Virus record (IMG/VR): IMGVR_UViG_3300010049_000011
Coordinates: 81,123-145,122 of that record
DNA length: 64,000 nucleotides
Strand: one strand, 5' to 3'
Source of the DNA: a virus
Lineage: Duplodnaviria > Caudoviricetes
Position numbers and translations under genes: made by a program. The notes under the pieces are model-generated. The model saw only the letters and a program-made list of their open reading frames with translations. It had not been told where the DNA came from and made no database searches. Below, piece after piece: positions 1-30,167 of the stretch (position 1 is the first letter of the stretch; every line of letters starts with the position of its first letter).

Positions 1-392
1 TAGCTCGTTCGCTTCGCTCACTCGGTCTATGTGTTACTCGCTCCTCGAATACAGAGTATTCTCGTCGACATTTCAAGCGTTCACTCACTTACGTTCGTTC
101 ACTGTGAAATGTATCGTAACAGAATCAATATTAACTCGCAAAGTATTGCTCGTAAATTGATTCTTGGACCCTAGAACCTATGTTTAGTCGAGAAAGAGCG
201 CTACGCTACTTTCCTCCTAGTTGGCTACCCGCCAGGTCAGATCTACTCTCGAAACAGAGTTTCTCGTAATTAACTTCACTACACAACTGCGTCTTTTAGA
301 GACTTGTTGTTGGTTCAATTAATTAAAGTTCGCTTCGCTCACGATCTGAGAACAGGTAGACCTTTCGGTCCTAAGGGTAGCAAGTTCAAGTA
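1..392 (-). other. Non-coding, multi-branched hairpin region with tandem G.A mismatches and GNA loops on the minus strand (candidate structured ssDNA element / origin); may continue left of the window
   Basis: Nested inverted repeats (68-75/105-112, 121-129/156-164, 225-230/375-380). GTTCGCTTCGCTCAC occurs at 7-21 and 328-342 and its reverse complement is GT-GA-GC-GAA-GC-GA-AC. CTCG-flanked hairpins at 44-64, 135-152 and 248-266. No ORF. Confidence 0.7.
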
Positions 393-419
393 CTGTTTAA
401 TTTCTTCTCTCATGCATGT

Positions 420-735
420 GTAGATCTATTCGAATACTACTAGATAAATCTAGTAGATATTCTCATATCTCTATCATCTGTTATGTTTCTTCTTAATCTT
501 CTTAATCTACTCTACTATTATTTTTATTTATTCTTTCTTCTTACTTATTCTTAAATAATTAATCTATAATGTTATAAAAACTAGGATAACTAGATCTTAA
601 TAAGAATTATTCTGTTTATTATGTTAAGAATATTAAATTATGTATCCAGTTATTTTTAAGATTCTACATCTACAGTATTTATTCAGTATTGTTAAGACTT
701 AGTATTACTCAATTACTCACTTCGTTCGTAATCTC
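420..735. other. Very AT-rich non-coding tract (candidate unwinding element) ending in another G.A hairpin at 712-732
   Basis: Visibly A/T-dominated, short palindromes, no ORF; 712-732 reverse complement is ATTAC-GA-AC-GAA-GT-GA-GTAAT. Confidence 0.5.
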
Positions 736-771
736 GTAAACATAAGTCTTGTAAACCTAGGTAATTTGAAC

Positions 772-1407
772 ATGTTCCAGAAGTTAATAGAATACCTCGA
801 GAAGCTGTTTAAGAAATTACTAGGTGTTCGTGAAGAAGGTTTGGAAAAACGTCTCTCGAAGGACTCTAAGGAAGATAATAACCAATCTAAAGGTGTAGTT
901 ATGACGGAAGTAAGAGAATTTGTAAAAAAGAACGATATGTGGGTAGATTTTGATCCTAAGGATATTTCAGACGAGATCAAAGTGAGGTTGGAGATTACAA
1001 GATCTAAAGTTAATCTCCTGTTAGCTGAAGCACCCGAAGAGCTTACTAAGTTAGTAATTGTTCAGAGAGGTTGGAGATCTCCTGAAAAGAATACTTCAGT
1101 AGGAGGAGTATTGAATTCACCTCACGAGTCTGGAGAAGGAATAGATATTAGGGAACTCAAATTTAGTAAACAAGAACTAGCTAAGTGGTGTGCTAAGAAC
1201 CAAAACTTACTAAAGAAGCATGGGTTGTATCTTGAAGATCCAGCTGTAACTGTTGGGAACTTTACTGATTGGTGTCACTTACAGACTCGCCCAACTAAAT
1301 TAGGTAATGTTGTGTTCATGCCTTATTCTTACACAGGGTATAATTCGTCTAAGGAATCAGTGTCTCAAAAGTGGTGGTCTGATTTAGGTGTTAAGAGGCC
1401 GTTTTAA
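772..1407 (+). CDS. Peptidase M15-family endolysin (Zn peptidoglycan peptidase)
   Basis: GWRSPEKN..VGG..NSPH..GEGIDI and WCHLQ match the M15 SxH-x6-D ... H zinc ligands. Confidence 0.8.
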   Translation: MFQKLIEYLEKLFKKLLGVREEGLEKRLSKDSKEDNNQSKGVVMTEVREFVKKNDMWVDFDPKDISDEIKVRLEITRSKVNLLLAEAPEELTKLVIVQRGWRSPEKNTSVGGVLNSPHESGEGIDIRELKFSKQELAKWCAKNQNLLKKHGLYLEDPAVTVGNFTDWCHLQTRPTKLGNVVFMPYSYTGYNSSKESVSQKWWSDLGVKRPF

Positions 1408-6014: not shown

Positions 6015-7631
6015 GTGGTAAGGGTTGAAGCAAGAAGTTGTGAACTGAGATCCGTCTCCCTAAAAGAGGCGGATTTATTTTTAATTAACCACCACAGACA
6101 GAAGTCGTGCGTAGGACAAGAACATAGATATGGCCTATTTTATAATAAAGATTTAATTGCGGTTATGACGTTCGGAAAACCTAGATACAATAGACATTTT
6201 CAGTTCGAAATTCTTAGGTTGTGTTTCCGAGAAGGGTACTTAGTGGTCGGCGGCAGCGAGCGGATGTTCGCTAACTTCTTAAAAGACGTTTCCCCTATTT
6301 CTATACTATCTTACTGTGATAAGAGATATTACACAGGGGAAGTCTACAAAAGATTAGGGTTCAACCACTTATACGATTCTCCTCCTCAGAAGATCTGGTG
6401 TAAGGGAGACAAGAAGATAACGTCCAATCTTCTGAGGAGATACGGACCAGATAGACTTATAAGAACCGGGGACGGGAAAGGGTCTGATAACGAAGAGATT
6501 ATGTTGAGGGAAGGGTGGGTTCCCGAGGAAGATCTAGGTCAGGGAGTTTGGGTTTGGGAATCTCCGGTTAGAGGGAAAGTTGGTTACATATGTAGGATAA
6601 TAAACAAGATAAACAACAGTACTTACGTAGGGCAGAAGTATTGGGGAGAGGAAGGTATAGACCCCACGTACTTAGGGAGCGGTACTCTAATAAAGAAGGC
6701 TGTAGAGAAGTACGGAAAAGACAATTTTAAGGTTGAGTTAATCGAGGAGTGTTATTCTGTTTTTGATCTTAATAGGAAAGAAATCGAGTACATAGAGTCT
6801 GAACGGAAGGTGGGGGGAGCTGAGTATAACATCACCTCCGGAGGGTTCTGGGGGTATGGTGTTGTTTCGGAAGAGACTAAGAGAATTATCTCCCAAAACA
6901 GCAAGAAGATGTGGGAAGATGAGGAATTTAAAGAACACATGACTAAAGTGTTTAAAGACCGTTGGAAGGATCTGGAGTATAAGAAGAGGGTAGTAGAGGC
7001 TATAGTTGCTTCTCAGAAAACCGAGTCTTACATACAAAAAGCAACCAACTCGGCTAGGGACCGTTGGATCGATCCCGAGCAGCGGAAGAAGGTATCGGAG
7101 GCCGTCAAAGAATACTACGACAAAACCGAAGGATCTAGAGAGAAGTGTTCGGAGATCTCTAAAAAGACGTGGGAAGATGAAGAGTTAAGAACTCGACAAT
7201 CTAACACTTATAAAGAAAAATGGAAAGATCCTAAGTTCAGGGCAGAGAGGATTAAAAAGACTCAAGAAGCGAGAAGTACTGAAGAGGCTAAGAAGAAGAC
7301 ATCCCAAGCTTCAATAGAGATGTGGAAGGACCCAGAATTCAGGGAAAGAGAGACGTTGAGAAAGAAAGAATCCGTGACTGAAGAATTCCGAGACTTAGTT
7401 TCCCAAAACAGCAAGAATCTCTGGAAAGACGAAGAGTATAGAAGAAAACGTAAGGAATCCTTAGATAAATATAGATCCTCTAGAGAGGGCAAAGAGAAGT
7501 GCTCTGCTGTTTCAAAGAAAGTTTGGGTAGACCCAGAGAGAAGGAAGGCAGCGTCGGAGAAGAGAAAGGTCCTGTGGAAGGACCCAGAATTCAGGGAAAA
7601 GATGAGATTAAACTCCGGTTCTAAACCCTAA
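6015..7631 (+). CDS. Mom-like GNAT domain + GIY-YIG endonuclease + NUMOD3-like helical repeats (homing endonuclease-like)
   Basis: N-terminal FL..HH.Q...YGLF...AVMTFG...EILRLC...GG...SYCD....G.VY..LGF; GYICRIINKIN..YVGQ...YLGSG...E...YN; about nine W-x-D-(P/E)-E repeats. Confidence 0.8.
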   Translation: MVRVEARSCELRSVSLKEADLFLINHHRQKSCVGQEHRYGLFYNKDLIAVMTFGKPRYNRHFQFEILRLCFREGYLVVGGSERMFANFLKDVSPISILSYCDKRYYTGEVYKRLGFNHLYDSPPQKIWCKGDKKITSNLLRRYGPDRLIRTGDGKGSDNEEIMLREGWVPEEDLGQGVWVWESPVRGKVGYICRIINKINNSTYVGQKYWGEEGIDPTYLGSGTLIKKAVEKYGKDNFKVELIEECYSVFDLNRKEIEYIESERKVGGAEYNITSGGFWGYGVVSEETKRIISQNSKKMWEDEEFKEHMTKVFKDRWKDLEYKKRVVEAIVASQKTESYIQKATNSARDRWIDPEQRKKVSEAVKEYYDKTEGSREKCSEISKKTWEDEELRTRQSNTYKEKWKDPKFRAERIKKTQEARSTEEAKKKTSQASIEMWKDPEFRERETLRKKESVTEEFRDLVSQNSKNLWKDEEYRRKRKESLDKYRSSREGKEKCSAVSKKVWVDPERRKAASEKRKVLWKDPEFREKMRLNSGSKP

Positions 7632-12029: not shown

Positions 12030-13757
12030 ATGTCGAAGATAATAGACCAAATCAGGGGCCTCTCTAAGAGATCTACAATAATTGAGGGCCTCTCTTACAA
12101 TGCTAAATCTAAAACGGCAACCGTAGGGGTAGACAATAAGTACCTCAACAACTTAAAAGAGTTTGCTCGTAGACAAGGTCTAGACATTAAGACCGATAGG
12201 GAAGGTAAATATATAACAATCCCTGGAGGATACTCTAGAGATGAGCAGAACTCCTTTATATCTGATTGGCTTACCTCGTTCAATCTTCCTGGGACTGAAG
12301 TAGTTAAATCTTATTACGACGCTTACGACCTTATGGATTCCAACGTCAGTTTGATAACCTTAGCTCTCGATACTTACGCAGATGAAGCTCTGTCTGTTGG
12401 GTTCCTCGACAACGACCCTCTCAAGATAGAGATATCTGATAAAGAGATTCAGGAGAAAGTAGAGAAGGTACTAGATATTAATAAGTACTATAAGAAACAG
12501 CGTGGTATAGTTAGATCTCTCGCCAAATACGGGGACATAGGAATCGAGTTACAACCGGAAGGGGTAGTGTCTGAAGAGCATAGTATTAAGTTAACAACTA
12601 GGAGAGCGACTTTAATCACCCCTATCGTGATGGATGACTCAGAAGTAATCTCTTCTTTCAAAATTAAGATGGATCTAAAGCGTCTGTCGCGCCTCAGGAA
12701 CTTTACTAAGACACGCTCTGAGAGAGTGGTTCAATCCTACGACTTTGCCTACTATTCCCTTTACGACGAAGAACTGTTCCCGTACGGTCGGTCTATGCTG
12801 TATAACGCCAAACCTATAGCTGACCAGCTTACAACTCTAGAGACTCTTCTGGCTCTTGGCCGCGCTAATAATGTAAATCGCTTAATTATTAAGGTTCCCG
12901 CTCCTGAAGGAGACGCTGTTGAAGCCTTCGAGAAAGTCTCGCAAGTTAAAGGGATGTATAAAAACACTCTGTTCGACGAACCTAACCTAGGTCAGAAGGC
13001 TGGTAGGAAGATTCCGGGTGTGAACGAGATACTTTGGATGCCTAATACCGAAGGGTTCGATATATCGAACCTAAAAGTCGATGTTAATATGGCAGACACT
13101 GCTGACGTTGACCATTTTGAAAATAAATTAAAAGACGCCACGAGGCTGCCCAAGGGCTTCTTCTCGGGTGATGAAGTAACTTCCCGAGGGGGTGCATTAG
13201 CCGAACAAGACTTGAAGTTCTCTCGGTTACTCCTCACGCTCCAGGACGCGTATTGTGAGGGAGTAGCTGATCTTGTTCTCCGAATAATCCTTAAACTGGG
13301 ATGTGAGATTACAGACGATCTAGAGATTAAAGTCTCCCTAGAGAAACCGATACAGCTCTCTGCAGACATGATCGCTCAATTCTCAGATAAGATTAATCTC
13401 GCTAAAGAATTCCTCAGCCTGAACTCTGAAATAACGGCAGTTCCAGGGCAGGAATCCCCCAAACCTATGGTGCAATCTAACGCTTATCAGCTCCTACAGC
13501 TTCTCGGTATACCCGAACAGATAGCTAAGTTGGTTACATCTGTGGGTGCCCTCGAAGTTATGCCTAAGGCCCAGGATAATTTCCTGCTAGGCCAGAAGGT
13601 TGCAATATCTGAAGGTAGTAAGAACGAAAGCAAGAATAAAGACGTAAAGGATTCTGGGTACTCAATAAGAGTCCCGATTACATCTTATACTTTAAAGTGT
13701 AAGGACACTGCTCCTAAGACTCTGATAGAATCGTGCCGAAATCCTGTAAAGGTCTAG
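12030..13757 (+). CDS. Portal protein (T4 gp20-like)
   Basis: ALDTYADE, PYGRSML..A.....QL..LE......R, DVDHF..KL.....LPK.F, QDLKFSR....LQ motifs. Confidence 0.88.
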   Translation: MSKIIDQIRGLSKRSTIIEGLSYNAKSKTATVGVDNKYLNNLKEFARRQGLDIKTDREGKYITIPGGYSRDEQNSFISDWLTSFNLPGTEVVKSYYDAYDLMDSNVSLITLALDTYADEALSVGFLDNDPLKIEISDKEIQEKVEKVLDINKYYKKQRGIVRSLAKYGDIGIELQPEGVVSEEHSIKLTTRRATLITPIVMDDSEVISSFKIKMDLKRLSRLRNFTKTRSERVVQSYDFAYYSLYDEELFPYGRSMLYNAKPIADQLTTLETLLALGRANNVNRLIIKVPAPEGDAVEAFEKVSQVKGMYKNTLFDEPNLGQKAGRKIPGVNEILWMPNTEGFDISNLKVDVNMADTADVDHFENKLKDATRLPKGFFSGDEVTSRGGALAEQDLKFSRLLLTLQDAYCEGVADLVLRIILKLGCEITDDLEIKVSLEKPIQLSADMIAQFSDKINLAKEFLSLNSEITAVPGQESPKPMVQSNAYQLLQLLGIPEQIAKLVTSVGALEVMPKAQDNFLLGQKVAISEGSKNESKNKDVKDSGYSIRVPITSYTLKCKDTAPKTLIESCRNPVKV

Positions 13758-23242: not shown

Positions 23243-23581
23243 ATGGTTAGTATACAAAAGTCCTTAGGATTTGATTATACGGAGTTTACAGAAGGAAGAT
23301 TGTTTTGTGTGTTAGACGTTCACGGAATGTCTTTAGATAGCAGTTATAGGTATGTTCGAGGATCTATTGAATATCTCTACTCTCAGAATCTTCGCAACGT
23401 TAAAGTTATTACAGGTCACGGAGAAGTGTACAACAAGCTCGAGGAGTGGCTCGAAGACATGTTTGACTCGTTTATTTCGATGGATCGGAAGAATGGCTGG
23501 TATGAAATAACTCTAAGGAAACAGGAACATCTACGTGCTTCTAGCCTGCGTAAAGGATCTAATTGTGGAAAAAGACTATAG
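23243..23581 (+). CDS. Stand-alone Smr (small MutS-related) domain protein
   Basis: LDVHGM...VKVITGHG....L.EWL motif. Confidence 0.8.
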   Translation: MVSIQKSLGFDYTEFTEGRLFCVLDVHGMSLDSSYRYVRGSIEYLYSQNLRNVKVITGHGEVYNKLEEWLEDMFDSFISMDRKNGWYEITLRKQEHLRASSLRKGSNCGKRL

Positions 23582-24677
23582 GATCAACGACCTCGCGACC
23601 CGTCAAGAGTACTTCGATGACTGGTTCGCGTTTATGGCTGAGTACGGCATCTTCGCAGGATGTGTTCAGCTATATTTTCCTGAGTTCGCGAAGAGATTGA
23701 ATCTGAGTCGCGAGCAGAGGTTCTGGTGGGCCTGGGTAAACTCCCACTGCCAGAATGCTTGTGTGACATATACGATCACGAGGTTCTTCCCAGACCTCCC
23801 TCGAACCGAAGAAGAAATATCTCGCCTGGAAGAATGGTACAGTAAAAACTGGCGTAGAATGGAGTACGACACGGACCAACGTTATAGAAAGGCTAAGCTC
23901 GTTAGCGAGTTGCGTGATTATTTGTCTCTTTTAAATGGTAGGACCCAAGAGCAGGTTTTCGACGTTGATCTAGCAGACCCTGACCCAAAGAAATACTTCC
24001 GTAACGTGCATGACTTTATCGAACAAATAAAGGGTTGGGGAAGACTCACTTGCTGGTCTGGGACAGAATTCTATAAGTGTCTAGCAGATCTCCCTGTCGA
24101 GTGGGATTCTTTCATGATGTATAACGTTGATGGGTCAAAATCTCACAGGAACGGGTGTTTCAAATCCTACGCTAAGGACGACTTAGTGTGGGATAAGAGA
24201 GAACCCGTCTTCGACGAGAAGAACAGACCAGATTCCCAACTCTGTTCGTTCGCAGAATCTTTAGGTTGGCAGACCGTAAAGAGGTTGAGAGAGAAATATA
24301 AAGAAAAACCCTGGTTCAGGTTTATCGGGCCGGAGACAGTAGAGACAGCCTTCTGCTCTTACAAGAACAGCTTTTACGGACGCAGGTACGTAACCGTGTA
24401 TTGTGATATGTCTTATAAACGGATTAAAAGAGCGGAGAGGGATTGGCCAGAAGTGAACTACTCTATCTTCTGGGATATACGCAGAGAACGCCTCCCTAAG
24501 AAGATTCTCCTCGAGTATAACCCTCGAGATGCGGAGATATGCAACTCGATGTCCGATCTATCTAAGGTTAAGAAGGCGCACGTGTTTAAGGAAACTGGAA
24601 CCCCTCCTATGATGTCCGTCTTATTTCCGGGTAAGTATCGCAGCAGTTATGATGAAGAATTTTTGGAACAGAATTAA
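23565..24677 (+). CDS. Amino acid:DNA transferase (AADT, aGPT-Pplase2 family) for thymidine hypermodification
   Basis: EQRFW.AW.N...QN, W...W..MEYDTD.RY.K, GWGRL..W...E, GSKSHRNG, ETAFCSYK...RRY..VY.DM motifs; GTG start at 23565 after AAGGA. Confidence 0.85.
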   Translation: MEKDYRINDLATRQEYFDDWFAFMAEYGIFAGCVQLYFPEFAKRLNLSREQRFWWAWVNSHCQNACVTYTITRFFPDLPRTEEEISRLEEWYSKNWRRMEYDTDQRYRKAKLVSELRDYLSLLNGRTQEQVFDVDLADPDPKKYFRNVHDFIEQIKGWGRLTCWSGTEFYKCLADLPVEWDSFMMYNVDGSKSHRNGCFKSYAKDDLVWDKREPVFDEKNRPDSQLCSFAESLGWQTVKRLREKYKEKPWFRFIGPETVETAFCSYKNSFYGRRYVTVYCDMSYKRIKRAERDWPEVNYSIFWDIRRERLPKKILLEYNPRDAEICNSMSDLSKVKKAHVFKETGTPPMMSVLFPGKYRSSYDEEFLEQN

Positions 24678-28646: not shown

Positions 28647-28726
28647 ATTTATTTAATACCTTTGCTAGGTTATTACTATCACACCTAAACTTTTCACTTG
28701 CCTTTTGGAAAGAAGCAAGCTATAGT
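28645..28726 (+). promoter_or_regulatory. Early sigma70-type promoter repeat, copy 2 (drives glyA-hydroxymethylase)
   Basis: TTGCCT (28698) -17- TATAGT (28721); CTTTGCTAGG at 28660-28669. Confidence 0.85.
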
Positions 28727-28778
28727 TCGTTCTGAGTTGTGTCCGCAAGTAAAATGTTTGAAGGGAGATTACGGTTGG

Positions 28779-30167
28779 ATGTGTGTTATGAACTATAGAG
28801 AAATAAGCTCGGACTTACAGATCTGCGTAAACGGGCAGAAGAAACAATACGCAGATTCTATCCAACTTATAGCCTCAGAGAATTACCCAAGTCAAGCAGT
28901 TCTCGATCTCATGGGTAGTTGTCTGTCTGCAAAATATTCCGAAGGATATCCAGGTAAAAGACATTACGGAGGTTGCTCGATAGTTGATGAAGTTGAGCAA
29001 TTCGCAATAGACAAGGCGTGTGAGTTGTTTAAATGTGATTATGCGAACGTCCAACCTTGGAGCGGAAGCCAAGCCAATCAGGCGGTGTACTTAGCTTTCC
29101 TAAAACCGCATGAAGTTATACTGTCTATGTCTTTGTCTAGCGGAGCTCACTTAACTCACGGAAGCAGGTTTACTTCCTCCGGTAAGTTTTATGTTCACAA
29201 GGAGTTTGATCTTGACGAGAATAACGAGATAAGCATGATTCTTTTGAGTAAGTCTCTAAAGGAACACCAACCACGTATGCTAATCATGGGGTACTCTGCG
29301 TACTCCCGAAAGATTAGCTTCGCACAAGTGCGTGAAGAGGTTGATCGCCACAACACTTGGTTGTGGTTGCACTTAAAAGAGATGTCTATCGGTATAGAGG
29401 AAGCGATCGTAGAGGAAACTTACGAGAGTAAGAAATGTCTCTTGATGGTCGATATGGCCCACTTTGCGGGTATAGTAGCAGCCTCCACCCGCACGAACGT
29501 TCAAGATCTGTTAAACGACGCAAACCTGTTGTGGGAAGATGAATGTCTCCCGTTCCCCTATGCAGACGTCGTGACTAGCACAACCCACAAGACTTTAAGA
29601 GGGCCGAGAGGAGGCCTTATTCTCTGGAACGATGAATCCTTTACTAACAAGATAAACCATGCAGTATTTCCAGGCATCCAAGGAGGAGCCAACCAAGCAA
29701 CAATAGCAGCGAAGGCCCAGTGTTTTATAGAGGCCCTGGACTCTGAGTTTAAAAGATATATAAACAACGTTCTCAGGAACACCCAGGCCTTAATCAGAGG
29801 ATTGCTCAGTACTGACGATAGGCTGAAGGTAGTGACTGGGGGTTCTGACAACCACATGATTTTGTTGGACTTGAAAGGGATTAACTTACTGGGGTCGGAC
29901 GCTGAGTCCGCATTGGAATCTGTAGACATCATCTGCAATAAGAATTTAATGCCGGGAGACAAGAAACCCGCTGAATCTTCTGCTATACGTTTAGGGACAG
30001 CCGCTATGACTTCGCGAGGGTTCACAGAACAAGTGTTCGAGGACTTAGGAGTTGTGATTGCCAAAGTGTTAGCGAAAGCTGCAGGAAGATGTCTCTTCTA
30101 CGAGGATAAGACCGTTTACTCGAGACAGGTTGCTGGTTGGGTTAAAGAGTTCCCGTTGGAGTATTGA
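28779..30167 (+). CDS. glyA: Serine hydroxymethyltransferase
   Basis: LIASENY, KYSEGYPGKRHYGG, NVQPWSGSQAN, GAHLTHG, DMAHFAG, TTHKTLRGPRGG, VFPGIQGG, IRLGTAAMTSRG; two insertions near the DMAH motif; start is 28779 or 28788. Confidence 0.97.
   Translation: MCVMNYREISSDLQICVNGQKKQYADSIQLIASENYPSQAVLDLMGSCLSAKYSEGYPGKRHYGGCSIVDEVEQFAIDKACELFKCDYANVQPWSGSQANQAVYLAFLKPHEVILSMSLSSGAHLTHGSRFTSSGKFYVHKEFDLDENNEISMILLSKSLKEHQPRMLIMGYSAYSRKISFAQVREEVDRHNTWLWLHLKEMSIGIEEAIVEETYESKKCLLMVDMAHFAGIVAASTRTNVQDLLNDANLLWEDECLPFPYADVVTSTTHKTLRGPRGGLILWNDESFTNKINHAVFPGIQGGANQATIAAKAQCFIEALDSEFKRYINNVLRNTQALIRGLLSTDDRLKVVTGGSDNHMILLDLKGINLLGSDAESALESVDIICNKNLMPGDKKPAESSAIRLGTAAMTSRGFTEQVFEDLGVVIAKVLAKAAGRCLFYEDKTVYSRQVAGWVKEFPLEY

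Follow-up and report, generated by a model that had tools for sequence, protein, structure and literature searches.

A minus-strand array of hairpins with tandem G.A steps beside an AT-rich tract in a phage genome: a candidate origin-like region

A single viral contig of 145,122 bp from an uncultured phage (IMG/VR record IMGVR_UViG_3300010049_000011) was found to carry, in its largest non-coding gap, an array of hairpins on one strand, in which short Watson-Crick steps alternate with tandem G.A mismatches (GA steps), beside a tract of AT-rich DNA. The sequence analysed here, referred to as the window, is the final 64 kb of this contig. Window positions 1-735 form the larger, right-hand part of a 925-bp stretch without a credible gene, and the hairpin element begins approximately 160 bases upstream of the window start. 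The array was confirmed to be real and proved stronger than first described, and folding of the minus strand as a single strand was supported. By analogy with known initiation signals, we tentatively favour reading the gap as an origin-like region for DNA unwinding and priming that may work through the one folded strand.

Results

Design and clustering of the hairpins

Hairpins were present on the minus strand at 4-24, 44-64, 79-102, 135-152, 248-266, 328-342 and 712-732, as named in the initial annotation, which had been made from the letters of the window alone. The AT-rich tract that it placed next to them was borne out as well (409-708, 23% G+C). Together with a further hairpin lying before the window, the GA hairpins number eight (Table 1); they are unlike in sequence and have the design alone in common. 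The Watson-Crick steps between the GA steps are almost all purine-pyrimidine (R-Y) dinucleotides (GT, AC and GC), and the design can therefore be written as (GA-RY)n with a short closing loop, such as GAA or GTAA. The C-GAA-G triloop form was found in three of the eight (H1, H6 and H7). Exact copies of the mini-hairpin heptamer of the GCGNAGC type lie on the minus strand within 7-21 and within 328-342. The heptamer occurs only 3+4 times genome-wide, and both plus-strand-complement copies in the gap are those of H1 and H6. The 15-base core shared by H1 and H6 has no other occurrence in this genome.

Four of the eight GA hairpins are the tips of longer stems with 7-9 perfect pairs. Four ordinary hairpins occupy the spaces between the GA hairpins, so that 420 nt are covered end to end by about a dozen hairpins. 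H7 is separated from the others by the AT-rich tract and ends 20 nt upstream of a peptidase gene. The tract itself holds a perfect 9+9 palindrome (437-456) and a doubled 9-mer near 487-506.

A mechanical scan was run over both strands of the whole 145-kb contig for hairpins made of Watson-Crick pairs and one tandem mismatch type only. GA/GA hairpins on the minus strand numbered 20 genome-wide, and seven of these fell within the 925-bp gap, where 0.13 were expected (Poisson P about 1e-10), whereas the 11 other tandem mismatch types gave no hairpin there in the same scan. As for hairpins with at least two GA steps, four distinct ones lie within 150 nt, versus two weak ones in the other 290 kb (both strands). 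The context 5'-Y-GA-R-3', in which tandem G.A pairs take the stable sheared form, was present at 22 of the 24 GA arms. The plus strand of the gap was correspondingly biased in its words, with CTCG occurring 13 times versus once for its complement, CTCAC six times versus none, and CTCGTAA four times (0.13 expected), and purines make up 58-60% of the minus strand of the region, as they do in the genome's sense strands.

The strand that folds

Both strands of the 470-nt array were folded under the Turner RNA parameters, which score tandem G.A pairs, and compared with 100 shuffles. The minus strand reached -139.6 kcal/mol (z -4.33) and none of the 100 shuffles folded as well; the plus strand reached -101.7 kcal/mol (z -0.84), a value matched by 19 of the 100. 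As the minus strand alone folds beyond its shuffles, neither a symmetric cruciform nor a plus-strand RNA explains the stems. The initial annotation had proposed that the functional molecule is folded single-stranded DNA of one strand, and had named equal folding of both strands as a refutation. The one-strand fold was supported, and the folded molecule may be DNA or RNA. The strands were clearly unequal under the Turner parameters and near equal under DNA nearest-neighbour parameters (z -1.9 for the minus strand and -1.45 for the plus strand). The latter calculation is uninformative because its parameter set has no terms for tandem G.A pairs or GNA loops. The 15-mer core scores 0 kcal/mol with the ViennaRNA DNA parameters and -0.2 kcal/mol with the RNA model, and the sequence rules seen here (Y-GA-R and the GNA and GNNA loops) are common to DNA and RNA folds.

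The 15-base core in other viral contigs

The 15-base core of H1 and H6 was searched for in IMG/VR with its reversed sequence as a control. The core was present in at least 117 stretches, at least ten of them with several copies, and the control in 53, all single. Among the matches listed, 58% of the core sites lay outside open frames of 100 codons versus 17% for the control, and 65% of the core sites were intergenic according to a crude gene call, most often in divergent gaps. In the same listed matches the core was antisense to both neighbours in 12 of the 30 co-directional cases, which argues against a purely mRNA-level role, and the GA strand was sense to the gene on its 3' side in 44 cases versus 24 (P 0.02), which fits a transcription-linked role. 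When the skeleton NN-GA-NN-GAA-NN-GA-NN was examined in the contigs carrying the core, both steps were complementary in 26 further variants (approximately 0.9 expected). Unbiased control contigs gave three with both steps complementary (0.24 expected), and with the reversed skeleton both steps were never complementary except in the control search word itself.

The genes next to the core were mixed, including SbcCD and helicases, homing endonucleases and terminases, with DNA-metabolism genes in several contigs. The core sometimes stood in inverted pairs, adjoining homing endonuclease genes. In four contigs (L037, L078, L094 and L100) the contexts extend the period-4 design or have iteron-like repeats and AT-rich DNA surrounded by copies on both strands. 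L037, an unrelated IMG/VR contig, contains at 12040-12560 three double G.A hairpin modules, two direct and one inverted, which flank two 19-nt iteron-like direct repeats, three CTTCAAAGTA-like words and an AT-rich run. This region, bordered by SbcCD-like genes and by a helicase gene, has a strongly origin-like layout.

A conserved module in Ackermannviridae

Serratia phage phiMAM1 was one of the core matches. In its gap between uvsW and gene 45, a CGAG-closed hairpin is capped by the core; next come a second hairpin, C-GA-GC-GAA-GC-GA-G, and 45 nt of AT-rich DNA. This module before gene 45, the sliding-clamp gene, is kept in five Ackermannviridae genera and is unannotated; no description of it was found in the literature searched. 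Its parts are a TGTTGAA word present in duplicate, a TAnTAT hexamer that does not vary and stands one base ahead of the CGAG-closed G.A hairpin, a second G.A hairpin with a GAA loop, and 40-45 nt of AT-rich DNA, after which a terminator-like hairpin follows in Kuttervirus and Limestonevirus. The module is a candidate small transcription unit or oriF-like origin.

In phiMAM1 the module occurs as three paralogues, before genes 45, 6 and 5, whose outer stems covary and whose loops are GAA/GTA or GAA/AAA/TTT. The changes in the module hairpins across the genera include a double change of C:G to T:A and a change of T.G to T:A, and in phage 3M the loop changed from GAA to GGA. A pairing alignment was made of all skeleton matches of the Ackermannviridae regions and this window, plus one variant picked by eye. 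In it 94% of the cells pair, three of the four pairs show double changes, and no shuffle or slid register matches the score. No variation occurs in the GA columns or in the loop G and A. This compensatory pairing in analogous hairpins indicates that the design is under selection for pairing in independent phage lineages. The initial annotation had suspected covariation from the array itself. Its Watson-Crick steps indeed vary while the GA/GA positions are kept, but the hairpins compared there are paralogues within one region and not orthologues; that the GA steps are kept while the Watson-Crick steps covary was seen in the analogous elements of other phages.

The phage had no close relative in the collections searched: there was no DNA match in the phage collection, and the small proteins flanking the gap had no match in IMG/VR. 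Among 5.8 billion proteins, the best relative of the neighbouring helicase was only 36% identical, and the next was not syntenic. Positional homology was also sought through the DinG-like helicase of phiMAM1, beside which there was no comparable gap.

Promoter-like and terminator-like elements in the gap

At the left edge of the gap we found an eighth genome copy of an early-promoter cassette (L001 11015-11069, contig 81015-81069, window -107..-53). It keeps the AT-rich run, the box (TTTGCTAGG / TTTGCTAGGTTCTTA) and a TTGCCT -35 element, and its -10 element is degenerate (TAAATC or AAATCT), with the first G.A hairpin in place of the usual spacer palindrome and -10. The cassette points rightward into the array, with no gene for 800 nt downstream, and the minus strand would therefore be its template. 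The seven other early-promoter cassettes of the genome have no such hairpin. A scan of the gap for sigma-70 promoters gave only weak matches on either strand and no credible leftward promoter right of the array; the sole recognisable promoter element is this plus-strand cassette.

A terminator-like hairpin was detected on the minus strand at L001 10990-11011, with seven pairs and an 8-nt loop followed by AAUUUUUAAU, a short U-run, 27 nt before the start of a 118-aa open reading frame (ORF). It could be the end of an RNA covering the minus-strand array, an attenuator, or a hairpin at the 5' end of the mRNA of the helicase operon.

A recurring non-coding word, GGTTCTAAA(T/C)CC(T/A)A..TAA, was found on the plus strand at contig 43873, 65476, 82530 (window 1408) and 88739 (window 7617). 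It is placed after or between plus-strand genes and may be a phage promoter or processing signal. Words of this type, obtained by k-mer enrichment in non-coding DNA, were considered as a promoter of the gap and set aside, having no useful occurrence in it. A scan of the region for tRNA and tmRNA found none.

Flanking genes and feature coordinates

Nearly all genes of the contig are on the plus strand, and the phage encodes a family A polymerase and a DnaB-type helicase for replication. The gap separates divergently read genes, because those on its left are on the minus strand and those on its right on the plus strand: the peptidase gene is followed by a tail-fibre-like gene, forming a rightward group of lysis and tail genes. 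The 118-aa ORF on the left had no family match and no useful Atlas match, and its structure model was poor. Two ORFs of 69 and 76 aa within the gap belong to no family, and both traverse the period-4 repeats.

Table 1. Positions of the hairpins, the gap, its flanking genes and the Ackermannviridae modules. Positions are those of the window unless stated otherwise.
Feature	Position	Strand	Description
Non-coding gap	-160..765 (contig 80963-81887; L001 10963-11887)		925 bp
Left flank		-	118-aa ORF, then SF2 DinG/Rad3-like helicase (leftward helicase operon)
GA hairpin before the window	-48..-15 (L001 11074-11107)	-	7-bp stem, two GA steps, TTTA loop; very clear
H1	4..24	-	C-GA-GT-GA-GC-[GAA]-GC-GA-AC-GA-G; has the mini-hairpin heptamer and the 15-base core also at 328-342
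H2	41..67 (core 44-64)	-	5-bp Watson-Crick stem, TCT loop, closed by two CGAG/CGAG-type steps
H3	68..112 (core 79-102)	-	GT-GA-AC-GA-AC-[GTAA]-GT-GA-GT-GA-AC; 8-bp perfect outer stem (68-75 with 105-112)
H4	121..164 (core 134-153)	-	CGAG-closed stem, TACT loop, in a 9-bp perfect outer stem
Ordinary imperfect hairpin	190..217	-	4-bp G+C stem, 3-nt loop, A/T-pair extension
H5	248..266	-	CGAG-AAAC-[TCT]-GTTT-CGAG
Long imperfect hairpin	268..326	-	Inner stem 283-310
H6	328..342	-	GT-GA-GC-[GAA]-GC-GA-AC; exact repeat of the H1 core
Small hairpin	358..372	-	GAAA loop
AT-rich tract	409..708		23% G+C; plus strand 46% T; candidate unwinding element
H7	694..750 (core 712-732)	-	ATTAC-GA-AC-[GAA]-GT-GA-GTAAT in a 57-nt stem with a further GA/GA step
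Right flank, first rightward gene	772..1407	+	M15-peptidase/endolysin-like
uvsW-gene 45 module	L189 775-900; L190 795-900; L191 780-900; L193 380-500; L124 3225-3330		
phiMAM1 extra module copies	Contig 22.4 kb and 112.4 kb		Before genes 6 and 5

Other features were recorded further along the window. A perfect tandem duplication of a 20-nt unit at 1457-1496 spans the predicted GTG start (1470) of a 450-aa Mtd_N tail-fibre-like ORF. Between tail-fibre-like genes lies a 538-aa ORF with matches to HNH and homing-endonuclease PHROGs (6015-7631). An amino acid:DNA transferase domain (PF18724) was found at 23535-24677 and a serine hydroxymethyltransferase at 28698-30167; if T is modified in this phage, the two strands of the gap would be chemically unlike, the plus strand being rich in T and the hairpin strand poor in it.

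Discussion

An origin-like region working through one folded strand

The reading that we tentatively favour, an origin-like unwinding and priming region, draws on several observations. The array occupies the largest gap of the contig, between divergent genes and beside a tract of 23% G+C. In addition, only one strand folds, the C-GAA-G triloops are of the DNA type, the core sites elsewhere tend to be intergenic and divergent, and the Ackermannviridae module repeats the layout on a small scale. In N4, promoter hairpins closed by GNA loops are extruded from the duplex at physiological supercoiling; of the two strands, SSB (single-stranded DNA-binding protein) leaves only the stable one folded. 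In the reading favoured here, negative supercoiling, aided by divergent transcription on both sides of the gap, would melt the 300-bp AT-rich tract. To either side of the tract, the minus strand, rich in purine, would snap into small hairpins that sheared G.A pairs and GNA/GNNA loops lock in place. The plus strand, rich in pyrimidine and unable to fold, would remain single, and the bubble is thereby proposed to be kept open. The single plus strand could then take up a helicase such as the DnaB-type enzyme of the phage, and the hairpin strand could provide SSB-resistant landmarks for a primer, whether made by a primase or supplied by a transcript. With the minus strand as template, synthesis would proceed rightward, as nearly all genes are read. 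We infer each of these opening, loading and priming steps, and roles as origin, primase site or hairpin promoter are suggested by analogy.

A number of results weigh against this reading. The initial annotation had pointed to a GC-skew switch as a mark of the element, but the skew rises steadily through the gap, follows gene direction and shows no switch. A repeat search of the gap for iterons (phased direct repeats of approximately 17-22 bp) gave only two-copy short families. In the 145-kb record, which IMG/VR classifies as linear and approximately 58% complete and which all of our gene searches cover, there was no Toprim_2 or Prim-Pol match for a primase, no initiator gene was identified (the neighbours of the DnaB-like gene had no family match), and a single-subunit RNA polymerase was not found either (no PF00940, RNA_pol, match; largest ORF 916 aa). 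The near-equal folding of the two strands under DNA parameters must be added to these. Others of the adverse results speak for a transcribed element. The contrast in z-scores between the strands is exactly what a minus-strand RNA gene would give; the terminator-like hairpin sits just downstream of the array on the minus strand, between the array and the 118-aa ORF; the three modules of phiMAM1 are each sense to the following gene; and the GA strand shows the sense bias described above.

Alternative explanations

A structured RNA from the minus strand is the main alternative, which we rate as slightly less likely than the origin-like reading. It would be a non-coding RNA of approximately 450-550 nt ending at the terminator-like hairpin, or a long leader or attenuator of the operon formed by the 118-aa ORF and the helicase, in which the G.A pairs and GNRA-type loops would act as RNA tertiary or protein-binding motifs. 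The fold far beyond shuffles under RNA parameters, which the plus strand does not share, and the sense-like purine content of 58-60% agree with such an RNA, as do the terminator-like hairpin with its U-run (L001 11011-10990 on the minus strand), the more frequent sense than antisense placement, in other phages, of the GA strand relative to the following gene, and the need of the downstream operon for a promoter somewhere in the gap. Against such an RNA, no credible promoter was found on the minus strand right of the array, and Rfam 15 covariance models run over both strands of L001 10500-12100 gave no match at E up to 10. H7 is a further difficulty: a leftward RNA starting in the AT-rich tract would not contain it, because it lies beyond the tract and adjoins the plus-strand gene. 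The GAA triloop closed by C-G is the DNA mini-hairpin form, and the RNA model gives the 15-mer core only -0.2 kcal/mol. The antisense placement in 12 of the 30 co-directional cases among the matches listed also argues against an RNA. A transcribed non-coding region between divergent gene blocks does serve as the origin in Ceduovirus (PMC7150918), but the PE1-T region of phage c2 is not unusually folded (z -0.17) and is without G.A hairpins.

We tentatively infer that the folded strand is DNA rather than RNA, to which the C-GAA-G loops, the position of H7, the lack of a detected leftward promoter and the frequent antisense placement of the core elsewhere all point. The two explanations are not wholly separate. 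In a variant that joins the RNA to the origin-like reading, the non-coding transcript would prime replication, as proposed for Ceduovirus PE1-T. They would merge if a purine-rich leftward transcript formed an R-loop with the hairpin strand displaced, which needs a leftward promoter, and none was found.

It is unlikely that the gap is an ordinary duplex-level control region of two divergent operons, in which the words and palindromes are protein-binding sites and the hairpin potential is a by-product. Such a region could account for the counts of CTCG, CTCGTAA and CTCAC, which are far above expectation and strongly strand-biased, for the upstream box and -35 of the eighth cassette at the left edge, pointing into the array, and for the perfect 9+9 palindrome in the AT-rich tract. 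Sites for dimeric proteins, however, would neither confine all mismatches to GA/GA on one strand (seven versus none for the 11 other types) nor keep the Y-GA-R context; the cassette copy has a degenerate -10, and the compensatory changes in analogous hairpins point to pairing rather than base-specific reading of the duplex.

We consider it similarly improbable that small mobile or recombining repeats without a dedicated role have piled up in a tolerant gap, resembling repetitive extragenic palindromes or bacterial interspersed mosaic elements (REP/BIME-like) or the ends of promoter early stem-loop (PeSL-like) cassettes. The 15-base core does recur letter for letter in unrelated viral contigs, sometimes as inverted pairs near homing endonuclease genes. 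This explanation is made less likely because the hairpins are not dispersed in this genome: dispersed extragenic repeats have many copies across intergenic regions, whereas the multi-GA hairpins and both copies of the 15-mer are all in this one gap. Moreover, the seven other cassettes lack such a hairpin, and the eight hairpins differ in sequence with only the design in common.

N4-type promoters, that is, template-strand hairpins read by a phage single-subunit RNA polymerase for rightward transcription, are very unlikely: N4 virion-polymerase promoters are mini-hairpins with GNA loops and 5-7-bp stems on the template strand (PMC13037366), all eight hairpins are oriented for rightward transcription and the geometry of H7 fits a start approximately 40 nt before the peptidase gene, but no such polymerase was found (no PF00940 match and no ORF above 916 aa in the record), the stems are broken by G.A steps, unlike those of N4 promoters, and only H7 precedes a gene, most of the hairpins having none after them.

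Implications

If one-strand G.A/GNA hairpins beside AT-rich tracts do mark opening and priming, origins would become predictable from sequence, those of metagenomic phages included, and the biology of DNA mini-hairpins, so far confined to small single-stranded DNA (ssDNA) replicons and N4, would be extended to duplex genomes. To our knowledge, most large double-stranded DNA (dsDNA) phages have replication origins that are still unmapped and for which there is no known sequence signature. A wider proposal, which we put forward as speculation and rate as rather doubtful, is that R-Y/tandem sheared G.A hairpins capped by GNA loops form a widespread class in large dsDNA phages, a strand-specific DNA signal beside AT-rich tracts that would lock the strand displaced where DNA is melted or R-looped, and so set the start of replication, or of clamp or helicase loading. 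Equally speculative is the corollary that this window would hold the most elaborate G.A hairpin array of the class, and that the Ackermannviridae module would be its tractable example in cultured phages. If the array is an RNA instead, it would be a novel structured phage RNA, about 450 nt long, whose repetitive G.A architecture is unusual. In either case the Ackermannviridae module offers cultured phages in which the DNA/RNA question can be settled.

Comparison with known systems

A full-text literature search found a review of mini-hairpins but no account, for large dsDNA phages, of arrays of G.A-stepped hairpins. Mini-hairpins of the GCGNAGC type in the C-GAA-G form are exceptionally stable as DNA, and natural sites include the complementary-strand origin of G4, the ssiA site of RSF1010 for the RepB' primase and the N4 virion-polymerase promoters (PMC13037366). 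The array shares with the GCGNAGC / GCGNNAGC mini-hairpins the exact GAA heptamer, present twice (H1 and H6), with the C-GAA-G variant in H7; as at the known sites, one strand only would be stable, and the position is non-coding and a plausible place for synthesis to begin. Each known site, in an ssDNA replicon or an N4 early promoter, is one hairpin, whereas about a dozen stand here in a large dsDNA myovirus-like genome. The hairpins of the array are also extended by alternating 2-bp R-Y steps and tandem G.A pairs, and no reader protein was found in the incomplete record searched.

The T4 origins oriF and oriG consist of a promoter and an AT-rich unwinding element, where a persistent R-loop displaces the non-template strand, and active T4 origins lie near points of transcriptional divergence (PMC3016281). 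The gap resembles them in its AT-rich tract next to a promoter-like element, its transcriptional divergence and the adjoining SF2 helicase gene. If a T4-like R-loop formed here, a purine-rich RNA and a self-folding displaced strand would favour its persistence. Unlike the T4 origins, the gap has no functional leftward promoter that we could find, the replisome of the phage is not T4-like, and the T4 origins are without such hairpins.

In the lactococcal Ceduovirus phages (c2, bIL67 and 923 types), the origins are non-coding and lie between divergent gene blocks, and the transcript PE1-T may prime replication; origin function was proposed to depend on the structure and length of this non-coding transcript (PMC7150918). 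The gap likewise is a non-coding region of several hundred bp between divergent gene blocks. The c2 origin differs in having mapped promoters that flank the region, an ordinary fold (z -0.17 / +0.75), no G.A hairpins and no sequence similarity to the gap, and was rejected as a structural relative on account of its fold and its lack of G.A hairpins.

The module of the Ackermannviridae, whose layout also resembles the promoter and AT-rich unwinding element of T4 oriF/oriG (PMC3016281), has several traits in common with the window: its hairpins are CGAG-closed and GA-stepped, carry GNA loops and stand on one strand, an AT-rich run comes directly after them, and a helicase gene is adjacent. It is approximately 130 nt long, sense to the downstream gene and present three times in phiMAM1, unlike the window, which has a 300-bp AT-rich tract and about a dozen hairpins; no homology extends beyond the hairpin cores. 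By analogy, the array may work like the known mini-hairpin initiation signals, while being distinct in its make-up from N4 promoter stems, iteron origins and the c2 region.

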